A DNA stretch of 40,334 bases, taken from assembly GCA_964481775.1 (NCBI GenBank), contig CAYZUX010000023.1:1-40334 (forward strand), read 5' to 3'. Of the stretch, positions 10,708 to 40,334 are shown piece after piece. Within the stretch, counting starts at the first letter, position 1. Each line of letters begins with the position of its first letter. Below the pieces are notes generated by a model that was given only the letters and a program-made list of their open reading frames with translations, did no database searches and was not told where the DNA came from. The translations under genes and the position numbers were made by a program. The DNA comes from an uncultured bacterium (GTDB lineage: Bacteria; Hinthialibacterota; Hinthialibacteria; OLB16).

Positions 10708-10715
10708 AATTATGA

Positions 10716-22825: not shown

Positions 22826-22840
22826 ATTAATTCTCCTTAC

Positions 22841-22883
22841 AAAAAAAGGTTATCAGGCCCTCTCCTGGAGGAAGAGGGCCTGA
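22841..22883 (-). terminator. Rho-independent terminator downstream of the beta-helix gene
   Basis: A GC-rich inverted repeat tcaggccctctcc-tgga-ggaagagggcctga (22853-22883) reads on the minus strand as a hairpin followed immediately by a T7 run (A7 at 22841-22847 on plus). The RBS and ATG of the prepilin-like gene follow directly. Confidence 0.55.
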
Positions 22884-22897
22884 TTAGAATTATCACC

Positions 22898-24553: not shown

Positions 24554-25348
24554 TAGTTTAACCTCCGAGATTAGAAATTCGAGTGACAAGAACCTAACTG
24601 GTTATGTTCACTTCGGTGTTGATTGAGGTTGATCTTAACTATTATTCGATTACAGAAAGCCAATAGTAAGGAAACGATTTCTACATGTCAAGCTTTATTT
24701 TAGAAAAAATTTCTTTTTTTTTGAGGGCTGAATTCTCTCCAAAAGAGGATATATTTGCGTCTGATTCATCCCAGAGAGAAAAAAAATTTGAGTTTTTCCT
24801 CTGATTTTTGTTGTCCTGGAAGATCATCGAGACACTTTTACTGGGTTAAGATATTCCTCCTCAGGCTGAGAGGACTTTAGTATGGAAAACGAATTTTCGA
24901 AGATCAAAGCCTTGGAATATTTCCGAAGAAAGGCTGCTCGTTTTCCTTCACTTTTTCACAAAACAAGGTCAACCGAGCTCAAGTCCCCCTGGAAAGACAT
25001 TTTATCGAATAACACCTTGATAATGCAGGTCTTAACAACAAATGAAGGGTACCCCCTTTCCCCATTTTATTCACCCACGGGGAGGTCTCACTCAAAAGGG
25101 AATAGCGCCGTTCCAAAACCAAGGCAGACCATCCGAGGATGAGGGCTGAGAAGATTAGGATTAGGAGTGGTGGCGAGACGATGAGTCGATCCTTGATGAA
25201 TCAAGCCAAGACAATATGACCTTACCAATGGTCCGTGAGTGAAAATCAGGCTAAGGCTGGTTAGAATTCGGATGCGTCTCGAAAAGGGGGCGTGCCATCA
25301 TCACTTTGATCATGCAAAATTTTTCGAGAAGTTCTACCATCGTTGCTA

Positions 25349-25377: not shown

Positions 25378-25433
25378 GCGGATTCAGTTTATTCATTTGG
25401 ACATAAAGAATGAGGAATGGAATAAGGATAACT

Positions 25434-26369: not shown

Positions 26370-26472
26370 GGGTTATCAGGGAGGATAACAGGGACAAGAA
26401 AAAACCGCTTGGTTTTGATTATTAGTGGAGCCTGCTGGTCATCTCAATAAAATTACAGGAGGAATATCAAAG

Positions 26473-27822
26473 ATGTATACGCGTTACTATGATCCAGAAA
26501 TCTTCATCCAGATGCTGGATGGCATTGATCTGGATGATCATGTGGTTGCTTCATATTATCTGAAAGACCGGATAGAGGGACAGAAGTGGCTTGACCATTT
26601 TGCTCTTATCCAGGCCATGGGGCTTGAGGGTTCCACGGGAACATGGGAAAAAGTGGAGGAAGACACCGCTGATGTGCGAATTGCGATGTCCAGCAAGATG
26701 GTGGGATACCACGAGATTCCGGCCGAGGATCCTTACACGAAGTCAGCCGTGGTTCAGTTGGCATTTCCGATCCGGGCATGGGGTGATAACCTCCCGATGA
26801 TGTTACTTGCAATTGCTGGTAATTGCTTTGCCTATTCAAAAAATATCATGTTGACAGACCTCTTTATAGGAAAGAACCTGTTAAAAATGTTTAAGGGGCC
26901 GAAGTTTGGTGTTCAAGGTGTTCGTGAACTGACTGGTGTTAAAGACCGTCCACTCTCTCTTCACATCATCAAGCCGAAGATGGGGATGACACCGGAACAG
27001 ACCGCCAACCAGGTGGCACAAACAGCTGCTGGCGGAGCGGACATGTGTAAAGATGATGAGATGCTGGCCGATGCATACAATAATACTATGGAACAACGTC
27101 TTCCTCTGGTTATGGAAGCGATCAACCGTGCCGCTGATAAAACGGGCAAGAAGATGATTTACCTTTGCAGCATCACTGATGAAAGTCAGAAAATGATCGA
27201 TAAGGCGAAAAAAGCTATAGAGCTCGGGGCAAATGGACTTCTCGTGACCTATTCAGCCGGTCTTGCAGCCTTGCGGAAACTGACTTCTGATCCTGATATC
27301 ACAGTTCCGGTAATGCTCCATGCCTCTCATATGATCGCCATGATGAAACAAATTGCCTGGCCTGTGCTGGCGAAACTGTGTCGTCTGTGCGGGGCCGATC
27401 TCATGTTGACACCGACGATCTGGTCATCCATTCCGATGGTATCAATGGAGGAGGGAATTCGGACTTCTTTCATGCAGCTGGCTCCATGGGGACATATCAA
27501 ACCAACTTTCCCGATGCCATGTGCCGGTGTCTATCCTGGGCTGGCTCCAATCATTATCGGCGAGTATGGAACTGATATCGTAATCCCTGCGGGTGGCGGT
27601 ATGCTTGGTCATCCAGATGGTTACACAGCGGGTGCGAAAGCTTGGAGACAGGCAATCGATGCGGCACTGTCCAATGAGAACTTTATCGATTACGCCAAAA
27701 AACCAGAAAACAAGGAATTAAGACGCGCGATCGAGAAATGGGGCTATATTGAACGACCCAAATCACCTTGGTTGCGTGTGGCTCCTGAGTTTCATCCAAA
27801 AACGATGAAGTTTGATGACTGA
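26473..27822 (+). CDS. RuBisCO large-subunit homologue, RuBisCO-like protein (form IV-like; not predicted to be a carboxylase)
   Basis: The ORF track starts at 26425. The Met at 26473 (MYTRYYDP…) has an AGGAGGAA RBS. A by-eye alignment to form I RbcL gives [11 protein letters not shown] vs STGTWTTVWTD; GNCFAYS…[37 protein letters not shown] vs GNVFGF…[47 protein letters not shown] vs GGLDFTKDDE; and …[27 protein letters not shown] vs …[26 protein letters not shown]. Positions equivalent to H294/R295, H327, K334 and S379 appear substituted (LHASH, [16 protein letters not shown], PCAGV). Confidence 0.8.
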   Translation: [449 protein letters not shown]

Positions 27823-27893
27823 TGCCGCCTGCATCCTTATGGATAGTTGAGTGAAATGAGGATGATAACGTCTGGATGATGGGGAGCAAATTG

Positions 27894-29378
27894 ATGGATC
27901 GGAATTATTACCTTGCGATAGACCTGGGTGCCGAAAGTGGTCGCGCTGTAATAGGGTCGATTGATGAGGGAAAACTGATGGTTGAGGAAATCCATCGATT
28001 CCCGAATGCTCCCGTAACCATATGTGGAACATTGTACTGGGACATCTTGAATATCTATGCCAATATCATTGAATCCCTGGATCGGTACCAACAACGATTT
28101 GGGGATTCAGTGAATGGCATTGGCATCGACAGCTGGGCAGTTGACTTTGGCTTGATTGATCGATATGGGAACCTTCTTCAAAATCCAGTCTGTTATCGTG
28201 ACTCCCGGACAGAAGGGATGTTTGAAAGAGTTGAGAAATCACTGTCAAAGAGAGAGGTATTTGACATTACTGGGATAGGTCTTATACCGATCTATACTCT
28301 CTGTCAGTTGAAATCATTGCGCATTCACCAGCCGGAATTGTTGAAATCAGCTGAAAAGCTCCTTTTGATCCCGGATCTTCTGAATTATTTTCTGTGCGGT
28401 AGTGTCGGCTGCGAACAGACAAATGCTATCACCACACAGCTTTATGACCCGCGCCAGGGTACCTGGAGTCATAAGATTTTTGACCTGATGGATTTTCCGT
28501 ATTCCATAATGGCCGATATCAACGCTCCTGGTACCTATTTGGGGGAACTGAGAGATTCCATCAAAGTCCAAACAGGTCTACGAAATGCTCCGGTAGTTTC
28601 TGTTTGCTCACATGATACTGGTTCTGCAGTTGCTGCTGTTCCAGCAGCAGTGGAAAATTATGGTTTTATCAGTTCCGGAACATGGTCTGTTGTCGGAATG
28701 ATGACGGGTGAGTTGATAACCACTGACGAGGCATTTTCCGCCAATGTCTGCAACGAACTGACAGCGGAGGGATTATTCCTGTGCCGTAACATAATGGGTT
28801 TGTGGTTGTTACAGCAAGCTCGCGCTGCATGGAGACGCAAAGGCATATCATATAGTTATGACGATCTGGTTCATTTGGCAGGTGAGGCTCCCCGTTCAGG
28901 ACCTCTTGTAATGGTTGATGATCCGACGTTCCTTCATCCAACAGACATGGTGGAGGCAATTCGTGTGTTTTGCCAGAAGACAGGACAGAAATCGATTTCA
29001 TCCGATGCTGGCTTTGTCTGCTGTATACTTGAAAGTCTGGCATTGGCGTACCGTCAGGCGCTAAACCAGATTCATCGCATCACCGGTCGTAGAAGTGAAA
29101 TCCTCCACATCGTTGGAGGGGGTGCTCTAAACTCTGTTTTGTGTCAATATACTGCAAACGCCACGGGAATAACCGTTTTGGCAGGTCCTCAGGATGCGAC
29201 TGCAACAGGCAATATCCTGGTTCAGGCACTATCACGCGGTGATTTGAAATCAATCAAGGAAATCCATGAAGTTGTTCGATCCTCAAGTCGTTTGGTTCAA
29301 TATGAACCATGTGACAATAAATATTGGGAAGATCGAATTGCCTACTACAATAAAATAATCAAAACACCTGAAGATTGA
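27894..29378 (+). CDS. FGGY-family carbohydrate kinase, rhamnulokinase (RhaB)-like
   Basis: The ORF track starts at 27876. The Met at 27894 has a GGGAG RBS. The N-terminus MDRNYYLAIDLGAESGRAVIG…EIHRFPNAP…GTLYWDI and IDSWAVDFGLIDRYGNLL match the RhaB pattern (VAVDLGASSGRVM…EIHRFNN…WDVD; IDTWGVDF). The length (~494 aa) fits. Confidence 0.75.
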   Translation: MDRNYYLAIDLGAESGRAVIGSIDEGKLMVEEIHRFPNAPVTICGTLYWDILNIYANIIESLDRYQQRFGDSVNGIGIDSWAVDFGLIDRYGNLLQNPVCYRDSRTEGMFERVEKSLSKREVFDITGIGLIPIYTLCQLKSLRIHQPELLKSAEKLLLIPDLLNYFLCGSVGCEQTNAITTQLYDPRQGTWSHKIFDLMDFPYSIMADINAPGTYLGELRDSIKVQTGLRNAPVVSVCSHDTGSAVAAVPAAVENYGFISSGTWSVVGMMTGELITTDEAFSANVCNELTAEGLFLCRNIMGLWLLQQARAAWRRKGISYSYDDLVHLAGEAPRSGPLVMVDDPTFLHPTDMVEAIRVFCQKTGQKSISSDAGFVCCILESLALAYRQALNQIHRITGRRSEILHIVGGGALNSVLCQYTANATGITVLAGPQDATATGNILVQALSRGDLKSIKEIHEVVRSSSRLVQYEPCDNKYWEDRIAYYNKIIKTPED

Positions 29379-29409
29379 TTCTTAAAAGAATGATCAGGAG
29401 GAAAGAAAG

Positions 29410-30396
29410 GTGCTTGCTGGACATTCATTCGGAGCTTGTTTACCCACATTCGGGAGTTGCGCGGATCGCTACTGCCTTGGCGGTTATGGTGGTGGGGGGG
29501 AAACCATCAAGGAGATGATAGACCTTTCCCTGAAGGTTAAAGGAATAGATGGGCTTGAACTGGTTGGTAATTGGCATGTCAATGATAACAATATACGTGA
29601 AATTGGAGCCATGTTCAAAGACAGGAATCTCAAAATTCCGATGTTGGTTCCAGACCTTTGGACACAGGCTAAATGGGGCAAGGGTAGTCTTGCTGCACCC
29701 GACGCAGTTACCCGGCAAGCGGCAATTGATGAAGTCCGCAAGGTGATGGATTGGGCGGCAGAGTTGAATTGTCCTTATGTGGATGTTTGGCCGGGTCAGG
29801 ATGGTTATGATTATTGCTTCCAGACTGATCACCTTGCTGCTTGGGAATGGCTACATGATGGTCTGGCAGCCTGTGCTTCTCATAATGATAAGGTAAAAGT
29901 TCTGGTCGAATACAAACTTAAGGAGCCAAGGACACATATTATTGTCAACAGTGCCGCAAAAACTCTCCTGCTCCTGGAAGATCTTCCCAATGTTGGCTGT
30001 CTACTGGATATTGGACATTCACTTGCCGCGGGAGAAAACATCGCGGAAGCTGCTTCACTACTAGCCCGTTATGGGAAGCTGGATTACCTTCACCTCAATG
30101 ATAACTATCGGTCTTGGGATGATGACATGATGCTTGGCTCGGTTCATCTTGTCGAGACCCTCGAACTGGCTTATTGGTTGAAACGATTGAACTATAATGG
30201 TTGGCTCACTCTCGATATTTTCCCTTACCGGGAGGATGGTGTTCGTGCCGCAACCCAGTGTTACCGGTGGATGGAAGCTCTGTTTTCATGTATTGAGCGT
30301 GTCGGGATGGACGAAATTGGATCAGTCATTAAGACAGGCGATGGATGTTCGGCAGTTGAAATTGTTCGGCGAGCATTTGGCCTGGAAAAAGACTAA
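29410..30396 (+). CDS. Xylose-isomerase-like TIM-barrel sugar (phosphate) isomerase/epimerase
   Basis: GTG start at 29410 with a strong AGGAGGAAAGAAAG RBS. The motifs …CLLDIGHSLAAGENI… and …LDYLHLNDN… are typical of the AP-endonuclease-2/xylose-isomerase-like (beta/alpha)8 family, which includes ketose 3-epimerases, OtnI-type isomerases and L-rhamnose-isomerase relatives. Confidence 0.65.
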   Translation: MLAGHSFGACLPTFGSCADRYCLGGYGGGGETIKEMIDLSLKVKGIDGLELVGNWHVNDNNIREIGAMFKDRNLKIPMLVPDLWTQAKWGKGSLAAPDAVTRQAAIDEVRKVMDWAAELNCPYVDVWPGQDGYDYCFQTDHLAAWEWLHDGLAACASHNDKVKVLVEYKLKEPRTHIIVNSAAKTLLLLEDLPNVGCLLDIGHSLAAGENIAEAASLLARYGKLDYLHLNDNYRSWDDDMMLGSVHLVETLELAYWLKRLNYNGWLTLDIFPYREDGVRAATQCYRWMEALFSCIERVGMDEIGSVIKTGDGCSAVEIVRRAFGLEKD

Positions 30397-30470
30397 TCTC
30401 ATTGTCCAAGATTGATTTCAATAAAAATCTGATAATGGCTGAGATGGCTGATACTTTAAATGTGAATATT

Positions 30471-30499
30471 TTCTTCACATGGATTCCACGCGGTATAAT
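30471..30499 (+). promoter_or_regulatory. Candidate promoter with consensus -10 hexamer in the 183-bp gap upstream of the lipoyl/E1/BMC gene string
   Basis: TATAAT at 30494-30499 with a weak -35 (TTCTTC, or TTCACA at non-ideal spacing). This is a by-eye match only. Confidence 0.2.
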
Positions 30500-30579
30500 T
30501 TCATGATAAGAATAGATCCGAAACTTCATGACCGGGATAGGGTCAGTCGGTTTCTTTGTTCAAAGGATGGGAATAGTAC

Positions 30580-31053
30580 ATGGTAGTTGCAATCAAAGTA
30601 CCAGACATGGGAACAACTGTGGATACAGTTATTTTAACAACCTGGCTGGTCAAAGAAGGCGAACATATTTCTCGTGGAGATCCAATTGCGGAAATTCAGA
30701 CTGATAAAGCGAATGTACAGCTTGAATCCGTTGCAGAAGGGATTCTCTTGAAGTGTATTGTGGAGGAGAATACAGAGCTTTCGGTAGGCCAAATTCTTGC
30801 CTACATTGGTTCGGCTGGGGAAATTATCGATGATGCGGCAATACCGGATTCCTCCTGTAATCCTGTTAAAAATGAGCAGTTTACTACAAGTCCAGAATCC
30901 TCATCGATAATATCAGTTCATGAAAACCCAACTGGTGAAGCTGCTGGTGATTCAGGTAAGTCTAATGACGGGAAAAAACGGGTCAAGGGTTCAACTCCGG
31001 TTTCGAAGATGGTCCGTAACCTGGCCCGGAAACACCAATTGGATTTGAATTAA
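30580..31053 (+). CDS. Lipoyl-domain protein with linker and the N-terminal half of a peripheral-subunit-binding domain (E2-like, lacking any catalytic acyltransferase domain); reads in frame into E1-alpha across a TAA
   Basis: The lipoyl-lysine motif is IAEIQTDKANVQLES within MVVAIKVPDMGTTVDTVILTTWLVKEGEHISRGD…. A Pro/Ser/Ala-rich linker follows, then GSTPVSKMVRNLARKHQLDLN-stop. The PSBD consensus (…RKLA.[23 protein letters not shown]) continues directly after the stop as VRGTGKGGSITREDV in the same frame. Confidence 0.75.
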   Translation: MVVAIKVPDMGTTVDTVILTTWLVKEGEHISRGDPIAEIQTDKANVQLESVAEGILLKCIVEENTELSVGQILAYIGSAGEIIDDAAIPDSSCNPVKNEQFTTSPESSSIISVHENPTGEAAGDSGKSNDGKKRVKGSTPVSKMVRNLARKHQLDLN

Positions 31054-31098
31054 GTCCGGGGCACAGGGAAGGGCGGAAGCATTACTCGTGAGGATGTA

Positions 31099-32100
31099 AT
31101 GCGTTTGGTGAACTCCACATCACCTGTGACTCCCATACCTGATGAAAACGATCCTTCATTTCTACTTGATCTTTACCGGAAAATGCTTCTGATCCGAAGG
31201 TTTGAAGAGCGCGTCAAATACCTTTTCCTTGAAGGTATCATGCCGGGTACCATTCATCAGTATCAGGGTGAGGAGGCTGTGGCGGTAGGAGTATGTGCCA
31301 CACTTAACCGGGATGACATCATAACAAGCACGCACCGTCCGCATGGTCACGCAATAGCCAAGGGGATTCCCATCAATTCATTGCTCAATGAATTGTTCGG
31401 AAAGACAACGGGTTGTTGTCGTGGTAAGGGAGGTTCGATGCATGTGGGCGATCTGGAACTGGGCATGGTTCCTGCCATTGCCATTGTGGGTGGAAATGTC
31501 CCACTGGCAACAGGTTGTGCTCTTGCATTTAAGATGAGGGGAGAATCGAGGGTAGCGGTTTCCTTCATGGGCGACGGAGCCATTAATGAAGGTGCCTTTC
31601 ATGAGGGTGTGAACATGGGTGCTATCTGGTCACTTCCTGTAATCTACGTTATCGAAAATAACCTGTACTCAGCATCGACACCGATTGGGAGCACAGTTAA
31701 GTTGTCAAAACTCTCTGATCGGGCCTTAGGCTATGGAATCCCTGGTGTCACTATTGATGGAAATGATGTCATGGAGGTCTACCGTGCAAGCCGTGAAGCT
31801 GTGGACCGTGCTCGAAAGGGGAAAGGTCCTACGCTGATCGAAGCCATCACCTATCGAATAACTGGTCACTCACGACGCGATCCCTGTAATTACCAGCCGG
31901 AAGAAGAGCGCAATGAGGCGATAAAGAAAGAACCAATTGGGCGATTTGAAAAACACCTGATTGAAACTGGCCTTATCAACCGGGATCAACTGAACCAGAT
32001 TAGCAAGGAAATAGATTTAGAGATTGAAGAGGCTGTTCAGGAAGCCATAAATGGACCAGATCCAAAACCAGAAGACGCTTTACAAGATGTCTTTGTGTGA
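31099..32100 (+). CDS. TPP-dependent 2-oxoacid/acetoin dehydrogenase E1 component alpha subunit
   Basis: …LYRKMLLIRRFEERV…IHQYQGEEAVAVGVCATLNRDDIITSTHRPHGHAIAKG…. The TPP motif is GDGAINEGAFHEGVNMGAIWSLPVIYVIENNLY. It is in the same frame as the upstream lipoyl ORF, with a GAGGA RBS before the ATG at 31099. Confidence 0.85.
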   Translation: MRLVNSTSPVTPIPDENDPSFLLDLYRKMLLIRRFEERVKYLFLEGIMPGTIHQYQGEEAVAVGVCATLNRDDIITSTHRPHGHAIAKGIPINSLLNELFGKTTGCCRGKGGSMHVGDLELGMVPAIAIVGGNVPLATGCALAFKMRGESRVAVSFMGDGAINEGAFHEGVNMGAIWSLPVIYVIENNLYSASTPIGSTVKLSKLSDRALGYGIPGVTIDGNDVMEVYRASREAVDRARKGKGPTLIEAITYRITGHSRRDPCNYQPEEERNEAIKKEPIGRFEKHLIETGLINRDQLNQISKEIDLEIEEAVQEAINGPDPKPEDALQDVFV

Positions 32101-32115
32101 GAGAAGGAAAGAATT

Positions 32116-33132
32116 GTGTCAAAAAAATCGATTGCTGAAGCCTTGCGTGAAGGTTTGCGTGAAGAAATGTTACGCGATGAGAGGGTTTTCTGTATTGGTG
32201 AGGATATTGCCATCCCAGGCGGATGGGGAGGAGCCTTCACCGTTACCCTGGGTTTGGAAAGCGATTTTGCTGACCGGATGATTAATACACCCATATCAGA
32301 AAATGGTGCGTTTGGTGTGGCTTGTGGAGCAGCGATGATGGGGATGAGACCAATCGCCGATGTTCAATATGGGGATTTCCTGTTCTGCGCCATGGATCAG
32401 GTTGCCAACAACATTGCAAAATTACGATATATGTCTGGAGGCAAGCTCGAGGTCCCAATCGTCATGCGTGCACCTGTCGGAGCCACCGGACGCGGAGCAC
32501 AACACGCTCAGAATCTCGAATCTATCTTTCTCTCCATTCCCGGAATCAAAATAGTGTGTCCCGCGACTGCTTATGATGCCAAGGGCTTACTAAAAGCAGC
32601 TGTTCGTGATAATAATCCTGTTCTTATGTTTGAACATAAGTTACTTTATGGCTCAAAAGGGGCACGGGCTGAATCGGGCTCACTGGATGCATCCAGTGAA
32701 ATCCCGGATCATGATTATATTGTACCCATTGGCAAAGGTATTGTTCGACGGGAAGGCAGTGATGTGACCATTGTCGGGACCCTGTTGATGATGCATTACG
32801 CTTTGAACGCCGCGGAAGTACTTGCAGCTGAAGGAATAAGCGCGGAAGTTATCGATCCCAGATCCCTGAATCCTTTTGATTGGCCTATCCTGGAGAAATC
32901 GGTCAGGAAAACCACTCGGTTGGTGACCGTCGAGGAAGGTCCATGCTTTGGTGGAATTGGTGCGGAAATATCAGCAACTGTTTCCGAACGATTGGGGGAT
33001 TACCTGACTGCCCCGATTTCTCGTGTGGGTGCACCCAATATTCCCGTACCCTTTGCCCCCATCATGGAAAACTATTATCGTCCAGATGTAAATAAGATCA
33101 TTGAAACTGTCCGGCAAGTGTGTGATAATTGA
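32116..33132 (+). CDS. E1 component beta subunit (transketolase-like pyrimidine-binding and C-terminal domains)
   Basis: GTG start with a GAAGGAAAG RBS, 15 nt after the E1-alpha stop. Motifs include …VFCIGEDIAIPGGWGGAFTVTLGLESDFADRMINTPISENGAFGVACGAAMMGMRPIADVQYGDFL… and …HAQNLESIFLSIPGIKIVCPATAYDAKGLL…. Confidence 0.85.
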   Translation: MSKKSIAEALREGLREEMLRDERVFCIGEDIAIPGGWGGAFTVTLGLESDFADRMINTPISENGAFGVACGAAMMGMRPIADVQYGDFLFCAMDQVANNIAKLRYMSGGKLEVPIVMRAPVGATGRGAQHAQNLESIFLSIPGIKIVCPATAYDAKGLLKAAVRDNNPVLMFEHKLLYGSKGARAESGSLDASSEIPDHDYIVPIGKGIVRREGSDVTIVGTLLMMHYALNAAEVLAAEGISAEVIDPRSLNPFDWPILEKSVRKTTRLVTVEEGPCFGGIGAEISATVSERLGDYLTAPISRVGAPNIPVPFAPIMENYYRPDVNKIIETVRQVCDN

Positions 33133-33175
33133 TCAAATGCCAGATTTTTTAATATTATTCCGTTAGGATACTGAA

Positions 33176-33796
33176 ATGACTGAACTGCGTAGTTTTATCA
33201 TACTTGATAATCTTCAGGAACAGTTGGCCTCATTCATGGCATCGACTGTCCAGGGGTATATGCCAGTGGCAGGAATGGCTTCCTTGTTTGTGGAGGTAGC
33301 ACCGGGTATGGAGATTGTCAGATTGCTGGATCGAGCTGTAAAAGCAACCGGTGTCCGTCCCGCGATTCAGGTTGTCGAGAGAAACTTTGGTGCTTTAGAA
33401 GTTCATTCAGATTCCCAAGCCGATGTTCGCCAGGCAGGCCTGGCAATTCTGGAGGCACTGGGAATGACGGAGGAGGACAGGATGAAACCAAGAATCGCTT
33501 CGTCCACGGTCATCCGGAAGGTGGATCCCTATCATGCCTCATTAATTAACAAAAGTCGTTCAGGTTCTTTATTGCTTGCCGGTCAGACTTTGTTTATTCT
33601 CGAGACACAACCAGCCATGTATGCAGTGCTGGCGTCCAATGAAGCGGAAAAGGCCAGCAAAGTGACCCTGGTGGATATACGTCCATTTGGAAATTATGGA
33701 CGATTGTACCTGGGGGGGGATGAGGCTGATGTCGTGGTGGGAAGTCAGGCCGCGATAAACTCGTTAATCAATCTTTCTGGGAAAGAAACCAACTGA
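33176..33796 (+). CDS. BMC-T shell protein (tandem BMC-domain, probably permuted PduB/EutL-like)
   Basis: Two BMC-like halves. The second ends …[35 protein letters not shown], which matches the canonical BMC C-terminal pattern G.V..V.GDV.AV..A. Confidence 0.65.
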
Positions 33797-33810
33797 GAGG
33801 AGAAAGTAAA

Positions 33811-34116
33811 ATGGCGGATGCACTTGGGATGATCGAAACACAAGGATTTGCAGCGATGGTGGAGGCCTCGGATGCGATGGTCAAGGCTGCCAAGGTTGAG
33901 CTTGTGGGATATGAGAAGACAGGTGGAGGCTATGTTACAGCGATTATCAGGGGAGATGTGGCCGCTGTTAAAGCCGCCTGTGAGGCGGGAGAACGGGGTG
34001 CGCGGGGAGTGGGTCAAGTCATATCAATCCATATCATCCCACGACCCCATACGAATGTAGACCTGGTTCTTCCTTTAGGCCGCAAAGAGGAAGCCGCCAA
34101 AGAAGCCGGAAAGTAG
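33811..34116 (+). CDS. BMC-H shell protein (PduA/EutM-type hexamer)
   Basis: [64 protein letters not shown] is a textbook Pfam00936 single-domain sequence with a short charged C-terminal tail. Confidence 0.9.
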
Positions 34117-34123
34117 AATTTCC

Positions 34124-34420
34124 ATGCAGATTGGCAGAGTGATTGGAACTGTGGTATCCACCGCTAAAGAACCCATGTTGGAAGGCCGGAAGCTGCTGGT
34201 GGTTCGTTCCCTCGATCTGAATGCGAAGGCGACAACAGGTTATGTGGTGGCAGTTGATTCGGTGGATGCGGGGATTGGTGATGTGGTCCTTGTCGCTCAG
34301 GGAAGTTCAGCCCGTTTGACAGGTGCCACAAAGGACCGTCCATGCGATGCGGTGATAATCGGGATTGTGGATTCATGGGATGTTGGCGGCGTAACCAAAT
34401 ACAGGAAAAGTGAAGAATGA
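34124..34420 (+). CDS. BMC-P vertex protein (EutN/PduN/CcmL family)
   Basis: MQIGRVIGTVVSTAKEPMLEGRKLLVV…GYVVAVDSVDAGIGDVVLVAQGSSARL…AVIIGIVDSWDV follows the EutN/CcmL pattern. Its stop overlaps the AldDH start (ATGA at 34417-34420). Confidence 0.85.
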   Translation: MQIGRVIGTVVSTAKEPMLEGRKLLVVRSLDLNAKATTGYVVAVDSVDAGIGDVVLVAQGSSARLTGATKDRPCDAVIIGIVDSWDVGGVTKYRKSEE

Positions 34421-35793
34421 CCCAGCGACAGCCAGTGTCAAGCCAGTCCTTGTGTTCTCCCTCCGTCTCCAGTGAGGGACCATGTTTTCCCTGTGTCGAT
34501 GCAGCAGTCACACGTGCATGCACAGCTTTCGAGGCTATGTCTGGTATGAACCTCGATACTCGTATTCGTGTGGTGGCTGCCATGCGCCAGGCAGCCAGGA
34601 ATCATGTCAAGGAATTAGCTTCACTGGCGGTCGAGGAAACGGGGCTTGGAAGGGTTGAGGATAAGGTTCGAAAAAACCTGCTGGTCACTATCAAAACTCC
34701 CGGTCCGGAATTCCTGGAACCTGTCGCTCAAAGCGGCTCCCGTGGTTTGATGTTGATGGAACGGGCGCCTTATGGAGTGATAGCATCCATTATTCCCGTT
34801 ACCAATCCCACTACCACGGTAATCAACAATGGGATAGCCATGATCAGCGCAGGGAACGCAGTGGTTTTCAATGCTCATCCCGGGGCCAAACGATGTTCCA
34901 ACCGTTGCATAGAAATTCTTAACGAAGCGATTATGGGCGCAGGGGGTCCCCCTGATCTGTTGACGGCGATTCCAGATCCAACGATCGGGACAGCACAGGC
35001 GTTAATGCGCCATACGAAGATCGCTTTGCTGTGTGTCACGGGGGGACCTGGAGTTGTACGCGAAGCCATGAATTGTGGCAAGAAGGTGATCGCCGCGGGA
35101 GCAGGAAATCCTCCCGCGGTCGTCGATGAAACCGCTGACATAAGTAATGCGGCAAATTCCATTGTCGCTGGTGCTTCTTTGGATAACAACATCATCTGCA
35201 CGGACGAAAAGGTCGTGGTAGTTGTCGATTCCATCGCTGATGATCTGAAGCGTCATATGCTGGCCCTGAATTGCGTTGAAGTTTCCGGAATTGATTTGCA
35301 GCGAGTATGTCGCTCGATCTTCAAATCCATTGAGGGCCGTTTTGGAACAATAAATACGCAAATGGTGGGTAAGGATGCCAGTATGATTCTGTCCGGGGCA
35401 GGGATCAATTGCCCCGCAGAAACACGTTTGGCTCTTTGCGAGGTTGACCGGGATCACCCGCTCGCCTGGACTGAGCAACTGATGCCAATTCTTCCGATTG
35501 TCCGAGCCAAGGACGTGGATGAGGCCATTTCCCTGGCGGTTGCTTATGAAAATGGACGGCGCCATACAGCGACCATGCATTCCACGAACATAGAAAAGTT
35601 GAATAAGATGGCTCGGATAGCCAACTGTTCAATCTTTGTCATGAATGGACCCTCCTTTGCCGGCCTGGGAATGGGTGGCGAGGGATATGCCTCGTTTACA
35701 ATAGCCAGTCCGACTGGAGAAGGTCTGACAAGTCCGATCAGTTTTACACGTGAGCGCCGTTGTACTCTGGTCGACACGCTAAGAATCGTGTAG
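34417..35793 (+). CDS. CoA-acylating aldehyde dehydrogenase (PduP/EutE-like BMC signature enzyme) with ~40-aa N-terminal extension
   Basis: …ERAPYGVIASIIPVTNPTTTVINNGIAMISAGNAVVFNAHPGAKRC…; the catalytic Cys context is LDNNIICTDEKVVVV. The N-terminal MTQRQPVSSQSLCSPSVSSEGPCFPCVDAAVTRACTAFEAMSGM precedes the conserved core. Confidence 0.85.
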   Translation: MTQRQPVSSQSLCSPSVSSEGPCFPCVDAAVTRACTAFEAMSGMNLDTRIRVVAAMRQAARNHVKELASLAVEETGLGRVEDKVRKNLLVTIKTPGPEFLEPVAQSGSRGLMLMERAPYGVIASIIPVTNPTTTVINNGIAMISAGNAVVFNAHPGAKRCSNRCIEILNEAIMGAGGPPDLLTAIPDPTIGTAQALMRHTKIALLCVTGGPGVVREAMNCGKKVIAAGAGNPPAVVDETADISNAANSIVAGASLDNNIICTDEKVVVVVDSIADDLKRHMLALNCVEVSGIDLQRVCRSIFKSIEGRFGTINTQMVGKDASMILSGAGINCPAETRLALCEVDRDHPLAWTEQLMPILPIVRAKDVDEAISLAVAYENGRRHTATMHSTNIEKLNKMARIANCSIFVMNGPSFAGLGMGGEGYASFTIASPTGEGLTSPISFTRERRCTLVDTLRIV

Positions 35794-35923
35794 TCCATAC
35801 TATTTTCTGATAAAAAGAGTAGAGTTCAAGATTGTAATAAATTGGGTTAGTGATAATTATTGTACCATCAGATAAACTTGTCACCAGATAATCCAAACAT
35901 AAAATAAAACGGGAGATATTCGA

Positions 35924-36481
35924 TTGGCTGTACTTGGGATGGTGGAGTTTAACAGAATTGCTACTGGCATTCATGCAACAGATGCCATGGTGAAGGCAGC
36001 TGAAGTTGAACTTATCGAATCCAGACCGATTACACCGGGCAAGTATATCTCGCTCGTGACTGGAGATGTGGCTTCTGTGAGTGCTTCCGTCAAAGCGGGT
36101 ATTGAAACAGCGGGTCTTGATGGAGTGATTGAGTCCTTTGTGCTCCCAAACCTTCATCCGCAAATTTTGCCCGTGATGCAAGGATACAACCCGGTTCCTG
36201 ATAAGGAGGCGGTCGGTATACTCGAAACAACTGGTGTTGCCGCTATTATTACAGCAACAGATGCAGCTCTAAAGGAATCTCCCGTGATTCTCGTTCGTCT
36301 TCATCTGGGTCTTCACATTGGAGGAAAGGGTTACGCAGTACTTGTGGGTGAGATTGCGGATATCGAGTCTTCAATCATGGCGGGAACCCGACAGGCTGGA
36401 AATCAACTTATCGATAAGAAAATTATTCCGAATCCTTATGAGGAGATATACCAATACCTCATGAAGAAACCTCACTGGTAA
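35924..36481 (+). CDS. Fused double BMC-domain shell protein (non-permuted tandem, BMC-T-like pseudohexamer)
   Basis: Domain 1 is MAVLGMVEFNRIATGIHATDAMVKAAEVELIESRPITPGKYISLVTGDVASVSASVKAGIE. Domain 2 is AVGILETTGVAAIITATDAALKESPVILVRLHLGLHIGGKGYAVLVGEIADIESSIMAG. Both are BMC-H-like. Confidence 0.75.
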   Translation: MAVLGMVEFNRIATGIHATDAMVKAAEVELIESRPITPGKYISLVTGDVASVSASVKAGIETAGLDGVIESFVLPNLHPQILPVMQGYNPVPDKEAVGILETTGVAAIITATDAALKESPVILVRLHLGLHIGGKGYAVLVGEIADIESSIMAGTRQAGNQLIDKKIIPNPYEEIYQYLMKKPHW

Positions 36482-36497
36482 GGATGATAAACTCGAT

Positions 36498-36782
36498 ATG
36501 ATTCCTGCACGAGTTATTGGCAGAATGGTTCTCAATCAAACTCTGCCGGCATTTCAGGGAGTTCCCTTTCTTTTGGTGGAGCCCATTAATGAAAAAATGA
36601 TCACTTCGGGGGATTATATGGTTGTCTGTGACGCTATTGGTGCCAATCTGGGTGAAACGGTATTTCTCGCCCAGGGACGGGAGGCGACTTTCAATCTTCC
36701 CGACCCATTCAATCCGGCCGACATGACGATAATTGCCATAATTGACCAAATAACGACCGGTCAGGATTCTCAGAAGGAATAG
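36498..36782 (+). CDS. BMC-P vertex protein paralogue 2 (EutN/CcmL family)
   Basis: MIPARVIGRMVLNQTLPAFQGVPFLLVEP…GDYMVVCDAIGANLGETVFLAQG…MTIIAIIDQI. Confidence 0.8.
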   Translation: MIPARVIGRMVLNQTLPAFQGVPFLLVEPINEKMITSGDYMVVCDAIGANLGETVFLAQGREATFNLPDPFNPADMTIIAIIDQITTGQDSQKE

Positions 36783-36790
36783 TTCAAACA

Positions 36791-37063
36791 GTGAAAATTG
36801 CACGTGTTGTGGCCCATGTTGTCTCAACCCAGAAGGTGATCAAGTATCACGGGATGAAAACATTGCTGGTAAAACCGTTACGTCTGGATGGAAGTGAGGA
36901 GGGCTCCACTTTTGTTGCCATAGACCGGGTACAGGCTGGGATCGGTGATATGGTATTATTAATGCAGGAGGGCAGCTCTGCTCGTACAATGTTTTATGAT
37001 GAACAAATGCCTGCTAGAAGTGTGATTGTCGGGATTATTGATCACCTGGAGATTAATGAATGA
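36791..37063 (+). CDS. BMC-P vertex protein paralogue 3 (EutN/CcmL family)
   Basis: MKIARVVAHVVSTQKVIKYHGMKTLLVKPL…STFVAIDRVQAGIGDMVLLMQEGSSAR…VIVGIIDHLEI. Its stop overlaps the aldolase start (ATGA at 37060-37063). Confidence 0.85.
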   Translation: MKIARVVAHVVSTQKVIKYHGMKTLLVKPLRLDGSEEGSTFVAIDRVQAGIGDMVLLMQEGSSARTMFYDEQMPARSVIVGIIDHLEINE

Positions 37064-37824
37064 TGACTGAGCTCGACATAAGAAAGGCAATATGTGAGGC
37101 CGGTAAAAGGCTTTATCTAAAAAATCTTGTTGCTGCGACTGATGGAAATATCAGTGTTCGGATTGGACCTGATCGATATCTTTGCACCCCAAGCGGAGTT
37201 TCGAAATATGATATGGCCCCTCATCATATTCTTATTGCTGACGGGCGAGGGAAACGGATATCTGGCGAGGGTAAAGTAACCTCCGAGTTTTTTACTCACC
37301 TTGCGGCGTATGAAGAACGAGCTGATGTGAGGGCTGTGGTTCATGCCCACCCACCAAAGGCCGTCGGATTTTCACTGGCGGGTGTTTCCATGGCGGAGTG
37401 TGTATTACCGGAAGTGGTTTACACGATAGGCGGTATTCCAACCTCCACCTATGCGACACCAGCTACTAAAGAAGGAGGGGAATCCATCAGGGAATTGATC
37501 CGCAAGTGTGATGCTCTGGTGATGGACCGTCATGGCGCAATTACTGTCGGAGTCGATGTTTATGACGCTCTTTTCAAAATGGAAAAGATCGAACATGCGG
37601 CGGATACTCTACTGGTGGCGCATCTATTAGGAAAAATTCGGACATTGGATTCAGAACAAATCATAAAATTACAGGGAATCCGGAAGTCCTATGGCGTATC
37701 AGGATATGCATATCCCTGTCATGAAAAGTCCTCGACACAATCTGAAAAAAATAAAGACGGAAACGAATCCTCAGACTTGGATAATATTATTGAGGATACC
37801 TTGCGAATTCTGGGCGGTGGGTAA
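37060..37824 (+). CDS. Class II (metal-dependent) aldolase, L-fuculose-/L-rhamnulose-1-phosphate aldolase family, with C-terminal encapsulation-peptide-like extension
   Basis: …ATDGNISVRIGPDRYLCTPSG… and the zinc-ligand motif VVHAHPPKAV, with Glu in TSEFFTHLAAYEE. Beyond the ~210-aa core lies a low-complexity linker (KSSTQSEKNKDGNESS) and an amphipathic DLDNIIEDTLRILGGG tail. Confidence 0.85.
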   Translation: MMTELDIRKAICEAGKRLYLKNLVAATDGNISVRIGPDRYLCTPSGVSKYDMAPHHILIADGRGKRISGEGKVTSEFFTHLAAYEERADVRAVVHAHPPKAVGFSLAGVSMAECVLPEVVYTIGGIPTSTYATPATKEGGESIRELIRKCDALVMDRHGAITVGVDVYDALFKMEKIEHAADTLLVAHLLGKIRTLDSEQIIKLQGIRKSYGVSGYAYPCHEKSSTQSEKNKDGNESSDLDNIIEDTLRILGGG

Positions 37825-38167
37825 GATATTGGTAAAAAAAAAGGATCGTGGCATAAAGTAATTATTATGTAGCAACAAATACTTCATTCCAGAATTACTT
37901 CTATCGCAGGACAGAAAGACCAGAATCCATCACCATCACCCTATGGAAGAAGAGGGTGGAAAATTATGTAAAACAATTTGCAAAACCAAACCAATAGTTT
38001 ATTATTTGATGAGTATGTTCATGATTAATCAATAAAAAGCATGTGTCCAGATTTGACTATTTGATTTTTATTCCAGGTTGAGTTTTATCGATTAAAGACT
38101 AATGAAAACATGGACTTCCGGATTTATTCTTGTTTTAATATTATTAATCCAAACCAAGGAGACGGTT

Positions 38168-39457
38168 ATGACGGCAACAAAAAATTCCCTAATGGCAACA
38201 ATCAAATCCCTGATGGAAGAAAAAGGTGTGCGCCGCCACGAACAGTCTGGCTACTATTATTACACCAGTTACGTGGACCTTTATGACTGGGAACTCTACT
38301 TTGATACAATTGCTCTGGCCTATGTTGGCGGAGAAGAAATTGCAATTCAGGGCCTTCGATTGTTTTGTGAGGCTCAAAAAACTGATGGATTTATCAGCCG
38401 GAGAATTCTTCAAAAACCTCTTCCAGAGAAAATCCCTGATCTTCATCGGAGGATATTCGCCGAGGAACAATTAGAACACTGTAAGCCCTTTCTTTTTCAG
38501 ACTTCGTTGATAATCAGCCGAACCAGAGGCAATGTGAACTGGCTTCGCCGAGAGGATTACGATGCACTTAAGAAATACCTGGACCACTGGTTATCATGCT
38601 GGGACCGTAATTCGAATGGACTGTGTGAATGGAGTAGTGCCCCACATAGTGGCTCGGATACTCAGTTGGAACGAATTGGACCTTGGCGATCGCGGTATTG
38701 TGAAGGTGTTGATTTGAACTGCTTTATAGTTTATGAGTGCCAGGCTGCCGCCTATATCTCTGAGGCAATGGGAGAAACCGAAGATTCGCAAAGATTTAGA
38801 CGAGAAGCTCACAGACGATCTCAGCTGATTCGAGATTTGCTCTGGGATGATCAGGAAGGTTTCTTCTATGATCGTGATGCGCGCACGGGGAAACAAATCA
38901 AAGTTAAATCCGCCGCCGCCTTTTTGACCCTGTGGGCGGGAGTTGCGACACCGGCTCAGGCTCAAGATCTTGTTCAGAGATACCTTTTGAATCCGGAGGA
39001 ATTCTGGCGTCCATTTCCGATATCGAGTTATGCCCGGTCAGAGCCATCCTACACACAATTTTATATCCCAAAGCCTGATATGGACCCTCTTAATGCTCTG
39101 GGACCCGGCCATGCCAACTGGTGCGGTGGGATGTGGCCTCATTGGAATTACCAGATCGTCCATGGACTGATTGAATATGGTTTCAAAGAGGAAGCTGGAA
39201 TTATAGCTGATAAACTTTTTGAGGCTGTTTCCAGAGAAGAAGGGCTGTTCGAATGGTATGATGCCGAGACAGGAGCCGGACAAGGTCTGAACCCCTTTTG
39301 GGCCGGTGCTTCCATCATGGGTGTGGTTCTCCCGGAAGAACTTCGGCAGGAGTTCAACCCCTCTCAGCCGGATTCTGTTGAGAAATTATTGAAATTTGAA
39401 ACGATGCGTTCAGCCCTCGGAATAGATAGTGTCTTTAACCCAAAGATAATACATTGA
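38168..39457 (+). CDS. Six-hairpin (alpha/alpha)6 glycoside hydrolase-like protein (GH63/GH37-like)
   Basis: The ORF track starts at 38102, which would add a hydrophobic MKTWTSGFILVLILLIQT leader. The Met at 38168 has a strong AAGGAGA RBS 7 nt upstream. The motifs …WDRNSNGLCEW…, …FFYDRDARTG… and …ANWCGGMWPHWNYQIVHGLIEYGFKEEAG… fit GH63/trehalase-like folds. Confidence 0.5.
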   Translation: MTATKNSLMATIKSLMEEKGVRRHEQSGYYYYTSYVDLYDWELYFDTIALAYVGGEEIAIQGLRLFCEAQKTDGFISRRILQKPLPEKIPDLHRRIFAEEQLEHCKPFLFQTSLIISRTRGNVNWLRREDYDALKKYLDHWLSCWDRNSNGLCEWSSAPHSGSDTQLERIGPWRSRYCEGVDLNCFIVYECQAAAYISEAMGETEDSQRFRREAHRRSQLIRDLLWDDQEGFFYDRDARTGKQIKVKSAAAFLTLWAGVATPAQAQDLVQRYLLNPEEFWRPFPISSYARSEPSYTQFYIPKPDMDPLNALGPGHANWCGGMWPHWNYQIVHGLIEYGFKEEAGIIADKLFEAVSREEGLFEWYDAETGAGQGLNPFWAGASIMGVVLPEELRQEFNPSQPDSVEKLLKFETMRSALGIDSVFNPKIIH

Positions 39458-40081
39458 CGCTCCTGAAAGAATCCCTTCCGCAACGGTTCATTCTGAATGA
39501 ATCAGTTTGACTTTCTCAGATTCCTCATGGAGAAGTTGAGTTGAAAAAAGGATACTCAAGGATAGTCGGCATTCCCGCCGATGTATTTGTTTTCCAAAAG
39601 AACATGTGAGCAAGGGGGTTTGCTATGGTAATTGTATTGTCTTTCCCGGTCTGGTCTTGAATATGGCGAAGGACCAGGTCCGGGCCGATATTTTGACATC
39701 TGTTGTGGGTCCTGCCAGAATGGGTGTTTACAGGAGAGTATACAGTGATGGGGATATAACCGATTTATGAATGCTATCCCCTGTGGTCTGTGATCTGGGC
39801 GATCATCATTACAAGGGAGAGAAGCTGCCGGTGGGCAGTTCCTCCTGGCAACCCTGAGAAGCACGTGAGCAAATACGCGGGAGTCTTTCAGGAATCTCTA
39901 AATGGCTGACGGGTGTAAAAATCGAGACAACGTCAAAACAGTGCGGTGGAGTTTTCGTGGCTGGACGATTTGAGGAAGAAATATGTGGACAGCACCTGTT
40001 GACCTGACGGATGGGCAGAGGAAGACAGGGGTGCCAGGTAGGAGCCGGGTCGGCGAAGAGTCTTTTCAAGTTGGCGGGAAT

Positions 40082-40334
40082 TAGATCATTGACCTTACGT
40101 GCAGGATAGACAAGGACACGTTGCAGCAAATCGGAAAGGGAGCCAGTTCGGGAGTGGTAACGCCCTGATGGCATTTCTGGCAGGGGTACTTGAACCGGAC
40201 ATGCTCGCGGATCTGGAGTTGCGTGGGGAGGTAATCGAGTTGTTCAGTGATGGTTTCGCCGAAGGGCTGCTGAAGCCCGCCACAGCAGGGGCAGATCCGC
40301 TTTTCTTCGGGAAGCGTGTGTTCGATGCGTATGC
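40082..40334 (-). mobile_element. IS66-family transposase (TnpC-like) fragment: zinc-finger region only, truncated and decayed (remnant)
   Basis: The minus-strand frame entering from beyond the window end reads IRIEHTLPEEKRICPCCGGLQQPFGETITEQLDYLPTQLQIREHVRFKYPCQKCHQGVTTPELAPFPI, then a stop at 40082-40084. This matches the IS66 TnpC CxxC…CxxC segment (…CP.CGG.L..IGE..SE.LD..P....V..H.R.KY.C..C…V.AP.P.RPI). The expected downstream …GLLA.V.VSKY.DHLPLYRQ… is absent or frame-broken, and only ~620 bp remain before the GH gene. Confidence 0.55.

Follow-up and report, generated by a model that had tools for sequence, protein, structure and literature searches.

Among the catalogued types of bacterial microcompartment (BMC), those named PVM, SPU3, SPU5 and MIC7 are compared here with a string of eight genes at positions 33176–37824 of contig CAYZUX010000023.1, from an uncultured bacterium. 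The genes encode six shell proteins (a double-stacking permuted trimer, BMC-Tdp; a hexamer, BMC-H; a tandem trimer, BMC-Ts; and three pentamers, BMC-P), a coenzyme A (CoA)-acylating aldehyde dehydrogenase (AldDH) and a protein of the class II aldolase family (PF00596) that resembles FucA. The window is the whole contig, 40,334 bp long. Labels such as L001 and L084 denote the related genomic loci with which it was compared.

The Planctomycetes–Verrucomicrobia (PVM) microcompartment of Planctopirus limnophila was reportedly described by Erbilgin and co-workers in 2014. PVM loci have two BMC-H and three BMC-P, and are found only in Planctomycetes and Verrucomicrobia (Sutter et al., 2021, PMC8217296). 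The PVM features used here follow Axen 2014, Aussignargues 2015 and Sutter 2021. Like the window, PVM loci have three distinct BMC-P, an AldDH and, as signature enzyme, a PF00596 protein that carries an encapsulation peptide at its C terminus. The predicted chemistry is also alike, in that a ketose-1-phosphate is split into dihydroxyacetone phosphate (DHAP) and lactaldehyde, and the lactaldehyde is converted to lactoyl-CoA. Unlike the window, they have two BMC-H and no BMC-Tdp, and they encode a phosphotransacylase (PTAC), an acetate kinase, an enzyme similar to lactate dehydrogenase (LDH) and a DeoR regulator.

SPU3 loci have one standard BMC-H, a BMC-P triplet, a BMC-Tdp of the CcmP clade, and a BMC-Ts with neither PduS nor a pore cysteine (Sutter et al., 2021, PMC8217296, Supplementary Data 2). 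They share with the window the order Tdp-H-P-AldDH-Ts-P-P, and the predicted shell set and gene order of the window fit this type exactly. The difference is in the cargo. The signature enzymes of SPU3 are RpiB and DeoC and its AldDH carries an N-terminal encapsulation peptide, whereas the window has a PF00596 aldolase with a C-terminal encapsulation peptide, placed after the last BMC-P. SPU5 is the closest catalogued analogue of such an aldolase cassette: five of its eight loci have a PF00596 aldolase with a C-terminal encapsulation peptide together with an SPU-type shell, but its BMC-Ts is PduS-associated and has the pore cysteine, and its BMC-Tdp is of the CsoS1D clade. MIC7, found in Eisenbacteria and Latescibacteria, has an SPU3-related AldDH with BMC-H, a BMC-P triplet and BMC-Ts; unlike the window, it lacks a signature enzyme and has a second BMC-H of a specialised kind. 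Neither SPU5 nor MIC7 is described with genes for a RuBisCO-like protein (RLP) or for an E1 enzyme. For Hydrogenedentes, the 2021 catalogue lists no loci other than FRAG6 and FRAG7 (Sutter et al., 2021, PMC8217296).

We propose that the organelle encoded in the window is the terminal step of a pathway whose other genes, among them those for an RLP and an E1, lie upstream in the same operon, and that it would produce DHAP and an acyl-CoA. On the evidence of gene content and order, we put the probability of this explanation at roughly 60%. As a part of it, the shell and AldDH would belong to the SPU3/MIC7 lineage, with the FucA-like aldolase standing in for RpiB and DeoC.

The microcompartment genes within a longer operon

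All eight open reading frames (ORFs; Table 1) lie on the plus strand where the earlier note on this DNA had placed them, and all score above the Pfam gathering cut-offs, so its shell-protein calls stand. The ATGA overlaps it reported at 34417–34420 and 37060–37063 are present exactly as described. Its statement that AldDH and aldolase are the only enzymes holds within 33176–37824, but not for the operon, which adds an RLP, a sugar kinase, an isomerase-fold protein, a lipoyl-E1α fusion and an E1β. Seven more genes lie on the same strand 5′ of 33176, with intergenic gaps of 15–183 nt, and the end of E1β is separated from the BMC-Tdp gene by just 43 nt. A scan whose overall yield was not above the shuffled expectation found no intergenic terminator-like site on the plus strand between 25410 and 39565; the first non-coding site of this kind after 25410 is at 39565–39582. 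Because of these short gaps and the lack of an intergenic terminator-like site, the string is read as continuous, and the eight genes are, judged by their spacing, the 3′ half of one longer predicted operon of about 25.4–37.8 kb, which perhaps reaches 39.5 kb. The coordinates should accordingly be extended to about 25410–37824, possibly to 39457. The same arrangement is present in three other assemblies from the same population.

The sole sizeable gap within the cassette is an AT-rich stretch of 130 nt between AldDH and BMC-Ts (35794–35923). It contains a promoter-like match at 35878–35905, and an internal promoter could be located there. An Rfam scan of the window gave no match.

The regulator at the start of the operon is a gene call of 311 residues in other assemblies of the same population. 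The RLP that follows has AGGAGG ahead of its ATG, which is the annotated start; an exact look-up with a GTG start gave no match. The protein falls below the cut-off of every NCBIfam equivalog, and hence of all assigned RLP families. It scores about equally against form III and MtnW, and a true form III RuBisCO is ruled out by the active-site alignment. When aligned to MtnW and form III, it keeps KPK, KDDE and GGGMLGHPDG, and has lost the counterparts of H294/R295, H327 and K334, which we take to be carboxylase residues in spinach RuBisCO numbering. Since the carboxylase residues are lost and the metal site is kept, the RLP is predicted to be of the enolase or isomerase type and not a carboxylase. 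It shares the carbamyl-lysine/metal site (KDDE), the KPK motif and the loss of carboxylase residues with MtnW/YkrW, with the methylthioribulose-1-phosphate (MTRu-1-P) isomerase of R. rubrum and with the RLPs of the apionate pathway, and its best relatives among solved structures are MtnW enolases. Unlike the known RLPs, it lies in a distinct conserved neighbourhood with E1/E2, kinase and isomerase-fold genes.

The sugar kinase scores 416 bits against the rhamnulokinase model TIGR02627 (cut-off 528) and 124 bits against fuculokinase. The earlier suggestion of a ketose-1-phosphate as substrate of the organelle agrees well with a rhamnulokinase-like kinase in the same operon. The isomerase-fold protein has weak matches, of 43–75 bits, to models of xylose and L-rhamnose isomerase. 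The next gene encodes a fusion of a lipoyl domain, a peripheral subunit-binding domain (PSBD) and a thiamine pyrophosphate (TPP)-dependent E1α; the lipoyl motif 'TDKA' is visible in the translation, and the best solved relative of the E1α is a mitochondrial-type pyruvate dehydrogenase (PDH) E1α (E 6e-59). E1β scores 340 bits against the NCBIfam PDH E1β subfamily, above its cut-off of 321. Pfam and NCBIfam scans found no 2-oxoacid_dh E2 catalytic domain and no E3 in the window; a full E2 is present in some related loci, for example L087 and L089.

In sister assemblies the lipoyl-PSBD-E1α fusion is a single gene of 506 residues. In the window it is interrupted mid-PSBD by an in-frame TAA at 31051–31053, where two assemblies (L081 and L082) read CAA, with C at 31051 in place of T. 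The change is either a strain polymorphism or an error. The window has a second difference in this gene at 31007 (A, against T in other assemblies).

The RLP/E1 module in other lineages

About 85 RLP loci were collected from several phyla; the gene counts that follow refer to the 19 with at least 6 kb on both sides, unless another total is given. RLP homologues with 62–88% identity are found on contigs annotated as Phycisphaerae, Verrucomicrobiota, Opitutaceae, Omnitrophota, Armatimonadota and Bryobacteraceae. This high identity across phyla suggests a strong constraint on the RLP, together with horizontal spread of the module. Among the homologues P0002–P0120, with 69–88% identity, the RLP is far more conserved than the adjoining kinase (35–59%).

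The isomerase-fold gene is present in 18 of the 19 loci, E1α/β in 15, a lipoyl domain or full E2 in 13, and the kinase in 11. An RpiR gene precedes the RLP in 49 of the 85 related loci, and genes for RhaT, RhaM and rhamnosidase are also present in some loci. As in the window, rhamnulokinase is the best match of the kinases that were scored from three other RLP loci, which rules out an LsrK-like kinase among those scored.

The gene that follows E1β is not the same in all lineages. In L086 (11326 to the end), L087 (17116–18009) and L126 it is a PF01791 protein. The L087 copy was scored directly and is an LsrF thiolase equivalog (NF006081, 490 bits against a cut-off of 297), and it shares about 73% identity with the copies in L086 and L126. 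Frequent companions of the LsrF-type gene are an RPE-like epimerase and a short-chain dehydrogenase/reductase similar to the C-terminal domain of RhaD-ADH fusions. In L136 (10938–11822) the position is occupied by an aldolase of the class II fructose-bisphosphate aldolase (FBA) family. In the window, L084 and L170/L090 it is occupied by a BMC cassette that ends in a FucA-like aldolase; the complete order RLP-kinase-isomerase-lipoyl-E1α-E1β-Tdp-H-P-AldDH-Ts-P-P-aldolase recurs in L084 and in L170/L090.

LsrF yields DHAP and an acyl-CoA in the Lsr pathway (LsrK, LsrG, LsrF). Since these are also the net products expected from the aldolase and AldDH together, the organelle would be a functional alternative for the last step of the pathway, and this is our main argument for connecting it to the module. 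Two enclosed reactions would then achieve what the LsrF-type thiolase of the cassette-free modules is expected, from its family, to do. The cassette-free RLP modules resemble the Lsr pathway in having an FGGY kinase and an LsrF equivalog, but the kinase is rhamnulokinase-like, there is no LsrG, and an RLP, an E1/E2 system and a xylose-isomerase-fold protein are found instead; the window differs further in having no LsrF. We found no description of the RLP/E1 module in the full-text literature, a coverage that leaves aside most subscription journals, and its association with an organelle appears to be undescribed.

Cassettes with the order Tdp-H-P-AldDH-Ts-P-P-aldolase are found in the window, L001, L003, L172, L084 and L170. 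Within this group the AldDH and aldolase are 60–88% identical and the BMC-Tdp 79–95%. Compared with the AldDH of the window, identity is 86% in L001, 72% in L172, 63–65% in L084 and L170, and 53–58% in SPU3 loci. The cassettes closer to the window, in L001 and L172, have no RLP module. The two RLP-linked branches (the window, and L084/L170) are separated in identity by the unlinked cassettes of L001, L172 and L003, so the linkage to RLP was either gained twice, or is old and has been repeatedly lost.

This distribution gives some weight to another explanation, in which the eight genes are a self-contained mobile cassette that landed beside the RLP/E1 operon, acts on the fuculose- or rhamnulose-1-phosphate of a standard pathway, and has no functional tie to RLP or E1. 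In L001, L003 and L172 the cassette is found by itself, with unrelated genes next to it, and in L173 it is split. The cassette of the window is nearer to the unlinked cassettes than to the RLP-linked ones of L084 and L170, and an IS66-like fragment lies at the contig end. However, BMC-Tdp follows E1β on the same strand after 43 nt without a terminator-like site; the identical adjacency is present in a second, divergent branch (L084, L170/L090); the position after E1β holds another DHAP-forming lyase or thiolase in other lineages; and the only sugar kinase in the window is that of the RLP module. We therefore judge a chance landing to be rather improbable, although it deserves to be taken seriously.

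Genes of the uroporphyrinogen decarboxylase (URO-D)/MtaA-like methyltransferase family also occur inside RLP loci (L085, 11361–12482 and 19407–20387; L086, 4064–5197; L089, 2291–3394). They are accompanied by DUF6259 genes and by genes without Pfam matches.

Lineage of the shell and aldehyde dehydrogenase

The BMC-Tdp is of the CcmP/CsoS1D type. Its Pfam BMC score is weak, but the assignment is made firm by end-to-end matches to CcmP (E 1.5e-69, full length) and to other solved structures of this class, namely HO-5816 (E 7.7e-62), CsoS1D and MSM0275, the Tdp of RMM. In L082 the corresponding gene call has the Pfam domains CsoS1D_N and BMC. In L084 (16740–17207) it is called at 155 residues, with CsoS1D_N alone, against 201–208 residues elsewhere; this may be a truncation or frameshift. 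The BMC-H translation contains the standard interface motifs KAAK and IPRPH. The BMC-Ts is PduT-like, matching the solved structure 3nwg (E 1.3e-46), but the pore cysteine is absent: there is a threonine instead ('PITPGKY', where the PduT type has 'PVCPGKY'). The three pentamers share just 31–42% identity with each other, and are distinct paralogues, as had been noted.

Relatives of the AldDH were sought in one genome per species, which gave 364, and loci were compared for the best 80 of these. The best match is in the uncultured bacterium of L001 (86%), followed by two metagenome-assembled genomes of Hydrogenedentota (66–67%). The remaining nearest AldDHs, at 53–58%, are from Chloroflexota, Gemmatimonadota, Acidimicrobiia, Eisenbacteria, Calditrichota and a few Planctomycetota and Verrucomicrobiota. 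The presence of Eisenbacteria loci among the nearest matches may be compared with the distribution of MIC7 given above. Nearly all of the 80 loci have the order Tdp-H-P-AldDH-Ts-P-P, and in 52 of them RpiB and DeoC lie immediately 5′ of BMC-Tdp, as found by tblastn. The same search gave no match to RpiB (PF02502) or DeoC (PF01791) in the window, L001, L003 or L084. In seven related loci, Pfam analysis of the ORFs 3′ of the last BMC-P identified hydrolases or nothing, the signature enzymes being upstream instead. By sequence identity, the aldolase cassettes form a family of their own, distinct from SPU3 proper. Every named relative of the aldolase belongs to Hydrogenedentota or Sumerlaeia; for AldDH and aldolase together, the best named relatives come from these two groups and not from Planctomycetes or Verrucomicrobia.

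The earlier note had assigned the locus to the PVM type, as a complete metabolosome in which fuculose- or rhamnulose-1-phosphate is cleaved and lactaldehyde becomes lactoyl-CoA. Much about the window would suit a genuine PVM fucose/rhamnose organelle: a class II aldolase bearing an encapsulation peptide at the C terminus, an AldDH, a BMC-P triplet, a rhamnulokinase-like gene and rhamnosidase-like glycosidases nearby, and the same predicted chemistry. The assignment nevertheless does not hold up well. PVM is described with two BMC-H and three BMC-P, but the window has a single BMC-H, together with a CcmP-like BMC-Tdp and a cysteine-less BMC-Ts, and a text search of the BMC-Tdp tree in Sutter et al. 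(2021, PMC8217296) found no entry 'PVM'. The nearest 80 of the 364 AldDHs are mostly in SPU3 or MIC7-like loci, which places the enzyme outside a PVM clade as judged from locus types and not from PVM sequences, and its named relatives are Hydrogenedentota. The pentamer triplet, which had been taken as a hallmark of PVM, is also found in the SPU, MUF2, MIC3/4/7, ACI and FRAG types. Finally, no PduL-type PTAC, acetate kinase, LDH/malate dehydrogenase-like enzyme or DeoR regulator was found among the contig ORFs of at least 150 residues. A true PVM organelle is thus unlikely. The word complete was also an overstatement, as the large ORFs of the contig include no PTAC, acetate kinase or alcohol dehydrogenase; with just the signature enzyme and AldDH found, the metabolosome core is incomplete.

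The probably encapsulated aldolase and its partner enzyme

The description of the locus as a catabolic microcompartment with a class II aldolase-family enzyme and a CoA-acylating AldDH as cargo is supported by Pfam scores, by conserved residues and by a C-terminal peptide. FucA is the best match of the aldolase among solved structures, and the counterparts of E. coli FucA Glu73, His92, His94 and His155, which comprise the Zn ligands and Glu73, are all kept, as are the phosphate-binding GN and TPSG motifs. The protein runs about 40 residues past the FucA fold, through a Cys/Ser-rich linker, to the sequence DLDNIIEDTLRIL. The helix LDxIIEDTLRVLG is conserved among the listed homologues of at least 245 residues (69 in this length class) and absent among those of about 220 residues (49 in this class), and its hydrophobic moment is 2.13. 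C-terminal encapsulation peptides have been described for BMC-associated class II aldolases (PMC4594438). Because a conserved amphipathic helix fits these peptides, DLDNIIEDTLRIL is assigned as an encapsulation peptide.

The AldDH belongs to the PduP/EutE class, with 610 bits against PRK15398 of NCBIfam (cut-off 403) and E 1.3e-114 against the R. palustris BMC enzyme 5jfl. Its nucleophilic cysteine is kept, in 'NNIICTDEK' aligned to the cysteine of 5jfl, so neither cargo enzyme has lost the catalytic residues that were checked. The N-terminus is of a different kind from that of its relatives. The AldDHs of L003, L084, L090 and the SPU3 type start with an amphipathic helix of the type DIExxVRxVLxRL, whereas in the window (34417–34495) and L001 (10001–10075) the N-terminus is of the same length but Ser/Pro/Gln-rich, with no helix. 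The maximum hydrophobic moment is 0.96 in the window and L001, against about 2.5 in L003, L084 and the SPU3 relative L006. There is no C-terminal extension either. A hidden encapsulation peptide beside the gene is ruled out by an in-frame stop immediately before its start and by the lack of an ORF in the 130-nt gap after it. Any encapsulation of this AldDH would therefore have to be by piggybacking on other cargo, which is possible for peptide-less cargo (PMC4594438).

The aldolase call itself can be questioned. PF00596 also includes dehydratases, epimerases and decarboxylases, and since the protein reaches no NCBIfam equivalog cut-off, the name 'aldolase' applies at the level of the family. 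The best partial scores are to models for ribulose-5-phosphate 4-epimerase and 3-oxo-tetronate-4-phosphate decarboxylase. The protein might then be an MtnB-like dehydratase, an epimerase or a decarboxylase that works with the RLP, in the manner of MtnB and MtnW in methionine salvage, and the position of MtnW enolases as nearest solved relatives of the RLP is in keeping with this. The AldDH would in that case take an aldehyde, for example acetaldehyde, from the TPP-dependent E1; acetoin-dehydrogenase-type E1 enzymes do release an aldehyde. Against this, none of the FucA Zn ligands lacks its counterpart, Glu73 is likewise kept, and no solved structure matches the protein better than FucA. E1α and E1β have no extension resembling an encapsulation peptide, so that E1 would produce its aldehyde outside the shell. 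In BMC-free modules, moreover, the position is filled by a class I or II DHAP-forming enzyme and not by a PF00596 protein. We consider this alternative improbable.

Proposed pathway

On the basis of these observations, we hypothesise that the neighbouring glycosidases would release a rhamnose-type 6-deoxy-hexose. This sugar would be isomerised and then, in the cytosol, converted by phosphorylation to a ketose-1-phosphate, with a rearrangement by the RLP possibly coming first. The ketose-1-phosphate, which may be rhamnulose-1-phosphate or a form rearranged by the RLP or epimerised, would enter the shell, where the aldolase would split it into DHAP and an aldehyde, most likely lactaldehyde. The AldDH would trap the lactaldehyde at once as an acyl-CoA (lactoyl-CoA). 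NAD+ and CoA could pass through a gated BMC-Tdp pore, or be recycled by enzymes encoded elsewhere. The upstream enzymes have equal lengths in BMC-linked and BMC-free loci, which leaves no extension for an encapsulation peptide and places them, probably, in the cytosol.

As the RLP and the lipoyl-E1 form the constant core of the module, either the substrate of the aldolase or the fate of its products probably involves them. Two candidates for the RLP/E1 step have been considered. One is a 1,3-isomerisation, followed by an acetoin-dehydrogenase-like cleavage to acyl-CoA and a triose- or tetrose-phosphate; the other is oxidation of the aldehyde through TPP and lipoamide.

A number of observations weigh against the explanation that the organelle completes this pathway. 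Neither an LsrF-like gene (5 of 19) nor a BMC (1 of 19) is present in 13 of the 19 RLP loci, L136 lying outside the 19, so the RLP does not always have a DHAP-forming lyase beside it. The closest relative of the cassette, in L001 (86–98% identical), sits without an RLP module, and the cassette can therefore work in other contexts. The PF00596 protein reaches no equivalog cut-off, and leans towards epimerase and decarboxylase models in its partial scores. The AldDH has no recognisable encapsulation peptide in the window or L001, by N-terminal comparison and hydrophobic moment, and among its large ORFs the 40-kb contig has neither PTAC nor alcohol dehydrogenase. The lipoyl-E1α gene is split by the in-frame TAA in the window. 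The identity of lactaldehyde is a guess from the family of the kinase, and a different aldehyde is possible if E1 or the RLP acts first. All of the functional links are drawn from gene order. That the locus is decaying in this strain, and has lost a working organelle or pathway, is very improbable: the nonsense codon at 31051, the AldDH without an encapsulation peptide, the lack of cofactor-recycling genes and the nearby transposase fragment would agree with decay, but the nonsense base is polymorphic, with CAA in two other assemblies of the same population, the other 15 ORFs are intact with conserved catalytic residues, the peptide-less N-terminus is shared with an AldDH 86% identical in L001 and hence inherited and maintained, and peptide-less cargo can piggyback (PMC4594438).

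A broader version of the proposed role can be offered, tentatively and with somewhat less than even odds. The microcompartment may have been recruited in at least two branches as the end module of a widespread, undescribed pathway for 6-deoxy-hexoses of the rhamnose type with an RLP and lipoyl-E1/E2 core, the encapsulated aldolase and AldDH being a non-orthologous replacement of an LsrF-type thiolase.

Genomic surroundings

Downstream of the aldolase lies a gene for a glycoside hydrolase (Table 1). The minus strand from 5363 to 24589 contains a cluster resembling a polysaccharide-utilisation locus. It encodes GH63/MGH1-like and rhamnosidase-six-hairpin-like proteins, a β-helix protein, an SSF symporter, a prepilin-type N-methyl protein, a protein of the fucose isomerase family that weakly matches the sulfoquinovose isomerase SftI, and three large proteins without a Pfam match. 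At the other end, from about 39600 to 40334 on the minus strand, is a fragment of an IS66-type transposase with stops inside and the zinc-finger motif 'CPCCGG...ITEQLDYLPTQLQIREHVRFKYPCQKC'; the contig probably ends at 40334 because of it.

The stand-alone cassettes of Hydrogenedentota type are followed by two ORFs, of about 355 and 205 residues, which have no recorded Pfam match and are alike by size (Table 1). They are absent from the window, and are candidates for unrecognised core or cofactor-recycling proteins.

Table 1 Predicted features of the operon in the window, and ORFs that follow the stand-alone cassettes in related loci
Feature	Position	Strand	Evidence and remarks
RpiR/MurR-family regulator	25410–26369	+	HTH_6 55 bits, SIS 92 bits; first gene of the string
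RLP, form IV type	26473–27822	+	RuBisCO_large 151 bits; 449 residues
FGGY sugar kinase, rhamnulokinase-like	27876–29378	+	Pfam FGGY_N and FGGY_C
Xylose-isomerase-fold TIM-barrel protein (isomerase or epimerase)	29410–30396	+	AP_endonuc_2 90 bits
Lipoyl + PSBD + E1α (TPP)	30580–32100	+	Biotin_lipoyl 66 bits, E1_dh 297 bits
E1β (transketolase-like pyrimidine-binding and C-terminal domains)	32116–33132	+	Transket_pyr 144 bits, Transketolase_C 131 bits
BMC-Tdp, CcmP/CsoS1D-type double-stacking permuted trimer	33176–33796	+	Pfam BMC 28.4 bits, single stretch
BMC-H hexamer	33811–34116	+	Pfam BMC 102 bits
BMC-P pentamer 1	34124–34420	+	EutN_CcmL 103 bits; stop overlaps AldDH start (ATGA)
CoA-acylating AldDH (PduP/EutE class)	34417–35793	+	Pfam Aldedh 123 bits
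BMC-Ts, PduT-like tandem trimer	35924–36481	+	Two BMC stretches, 135 bits
BMC-P pentamer 2	36498–36782	+	EutN_CcmL 73 bits; 31–33% identical to pentamers 1 and 3
BMC-P pentamer 3	36791–37063	+	EutN_CcmL 91 bits; stop overlaps aldolase start (ATGA)
FucA-like class II aldolase-family signature enzyme	37060–37824	+	Pfam Aldolase_II (PF00596) 148 bits
Encapsulation peptide DLDNIIEDTLRIL	37774–37812	+	Aldolase residues 239–251
GH63/MGH1-like glycoside hydrolase	38102–39457	+	MGH1-like_GH 128 bits; possibly last gene of the transcription unit
ORFs after stand-alone cassette, L003	13463–14557, 14875–15495		
ORFs after stand-alone cassette, L172	11087–12154, 12389–13006		
ORFs after stand-alone cassette, L173	10870–11928, 12089–12706		

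Significance

The combination of aldolase, AldDH and three pentamers does not identify a PVM organelle. Here a PVM-style aldolase cargo is plugged into a predicted SPU3-type shell in Hydrogenedentota-like bacteria, which supports modular exchange of shells and signature enzymes. The organelle combines a shell and AldDH of the SPU3 lineage with a PVM-style aldolase, in a phylum for which the 2021 catalogue lists no organelle of this type.

The operon sits in a neighbourhood concerned with polysaccharide degradation, in an uncultured lineage of the sediment or bioreactor type. The genes adjoining the cassette point to a conserved RLP family without an assigned function, and assigning functions to RLPs is a long-standing problem. 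The three end-modules found after E1β, namely the LsrF-type thiolase, the FBA-type aldolase and the encapsulated FucA-type aldolase with its AldDH, constrain what the last intermediate of the pathway can be. If the broader version of the proposed role is true, the locus would represent a BMC type absent from the 2021 catalogue and, as far as we have found, the first case in which a form IV RuBisCO-like protein is functionally tied to a catabolic metabolosome.

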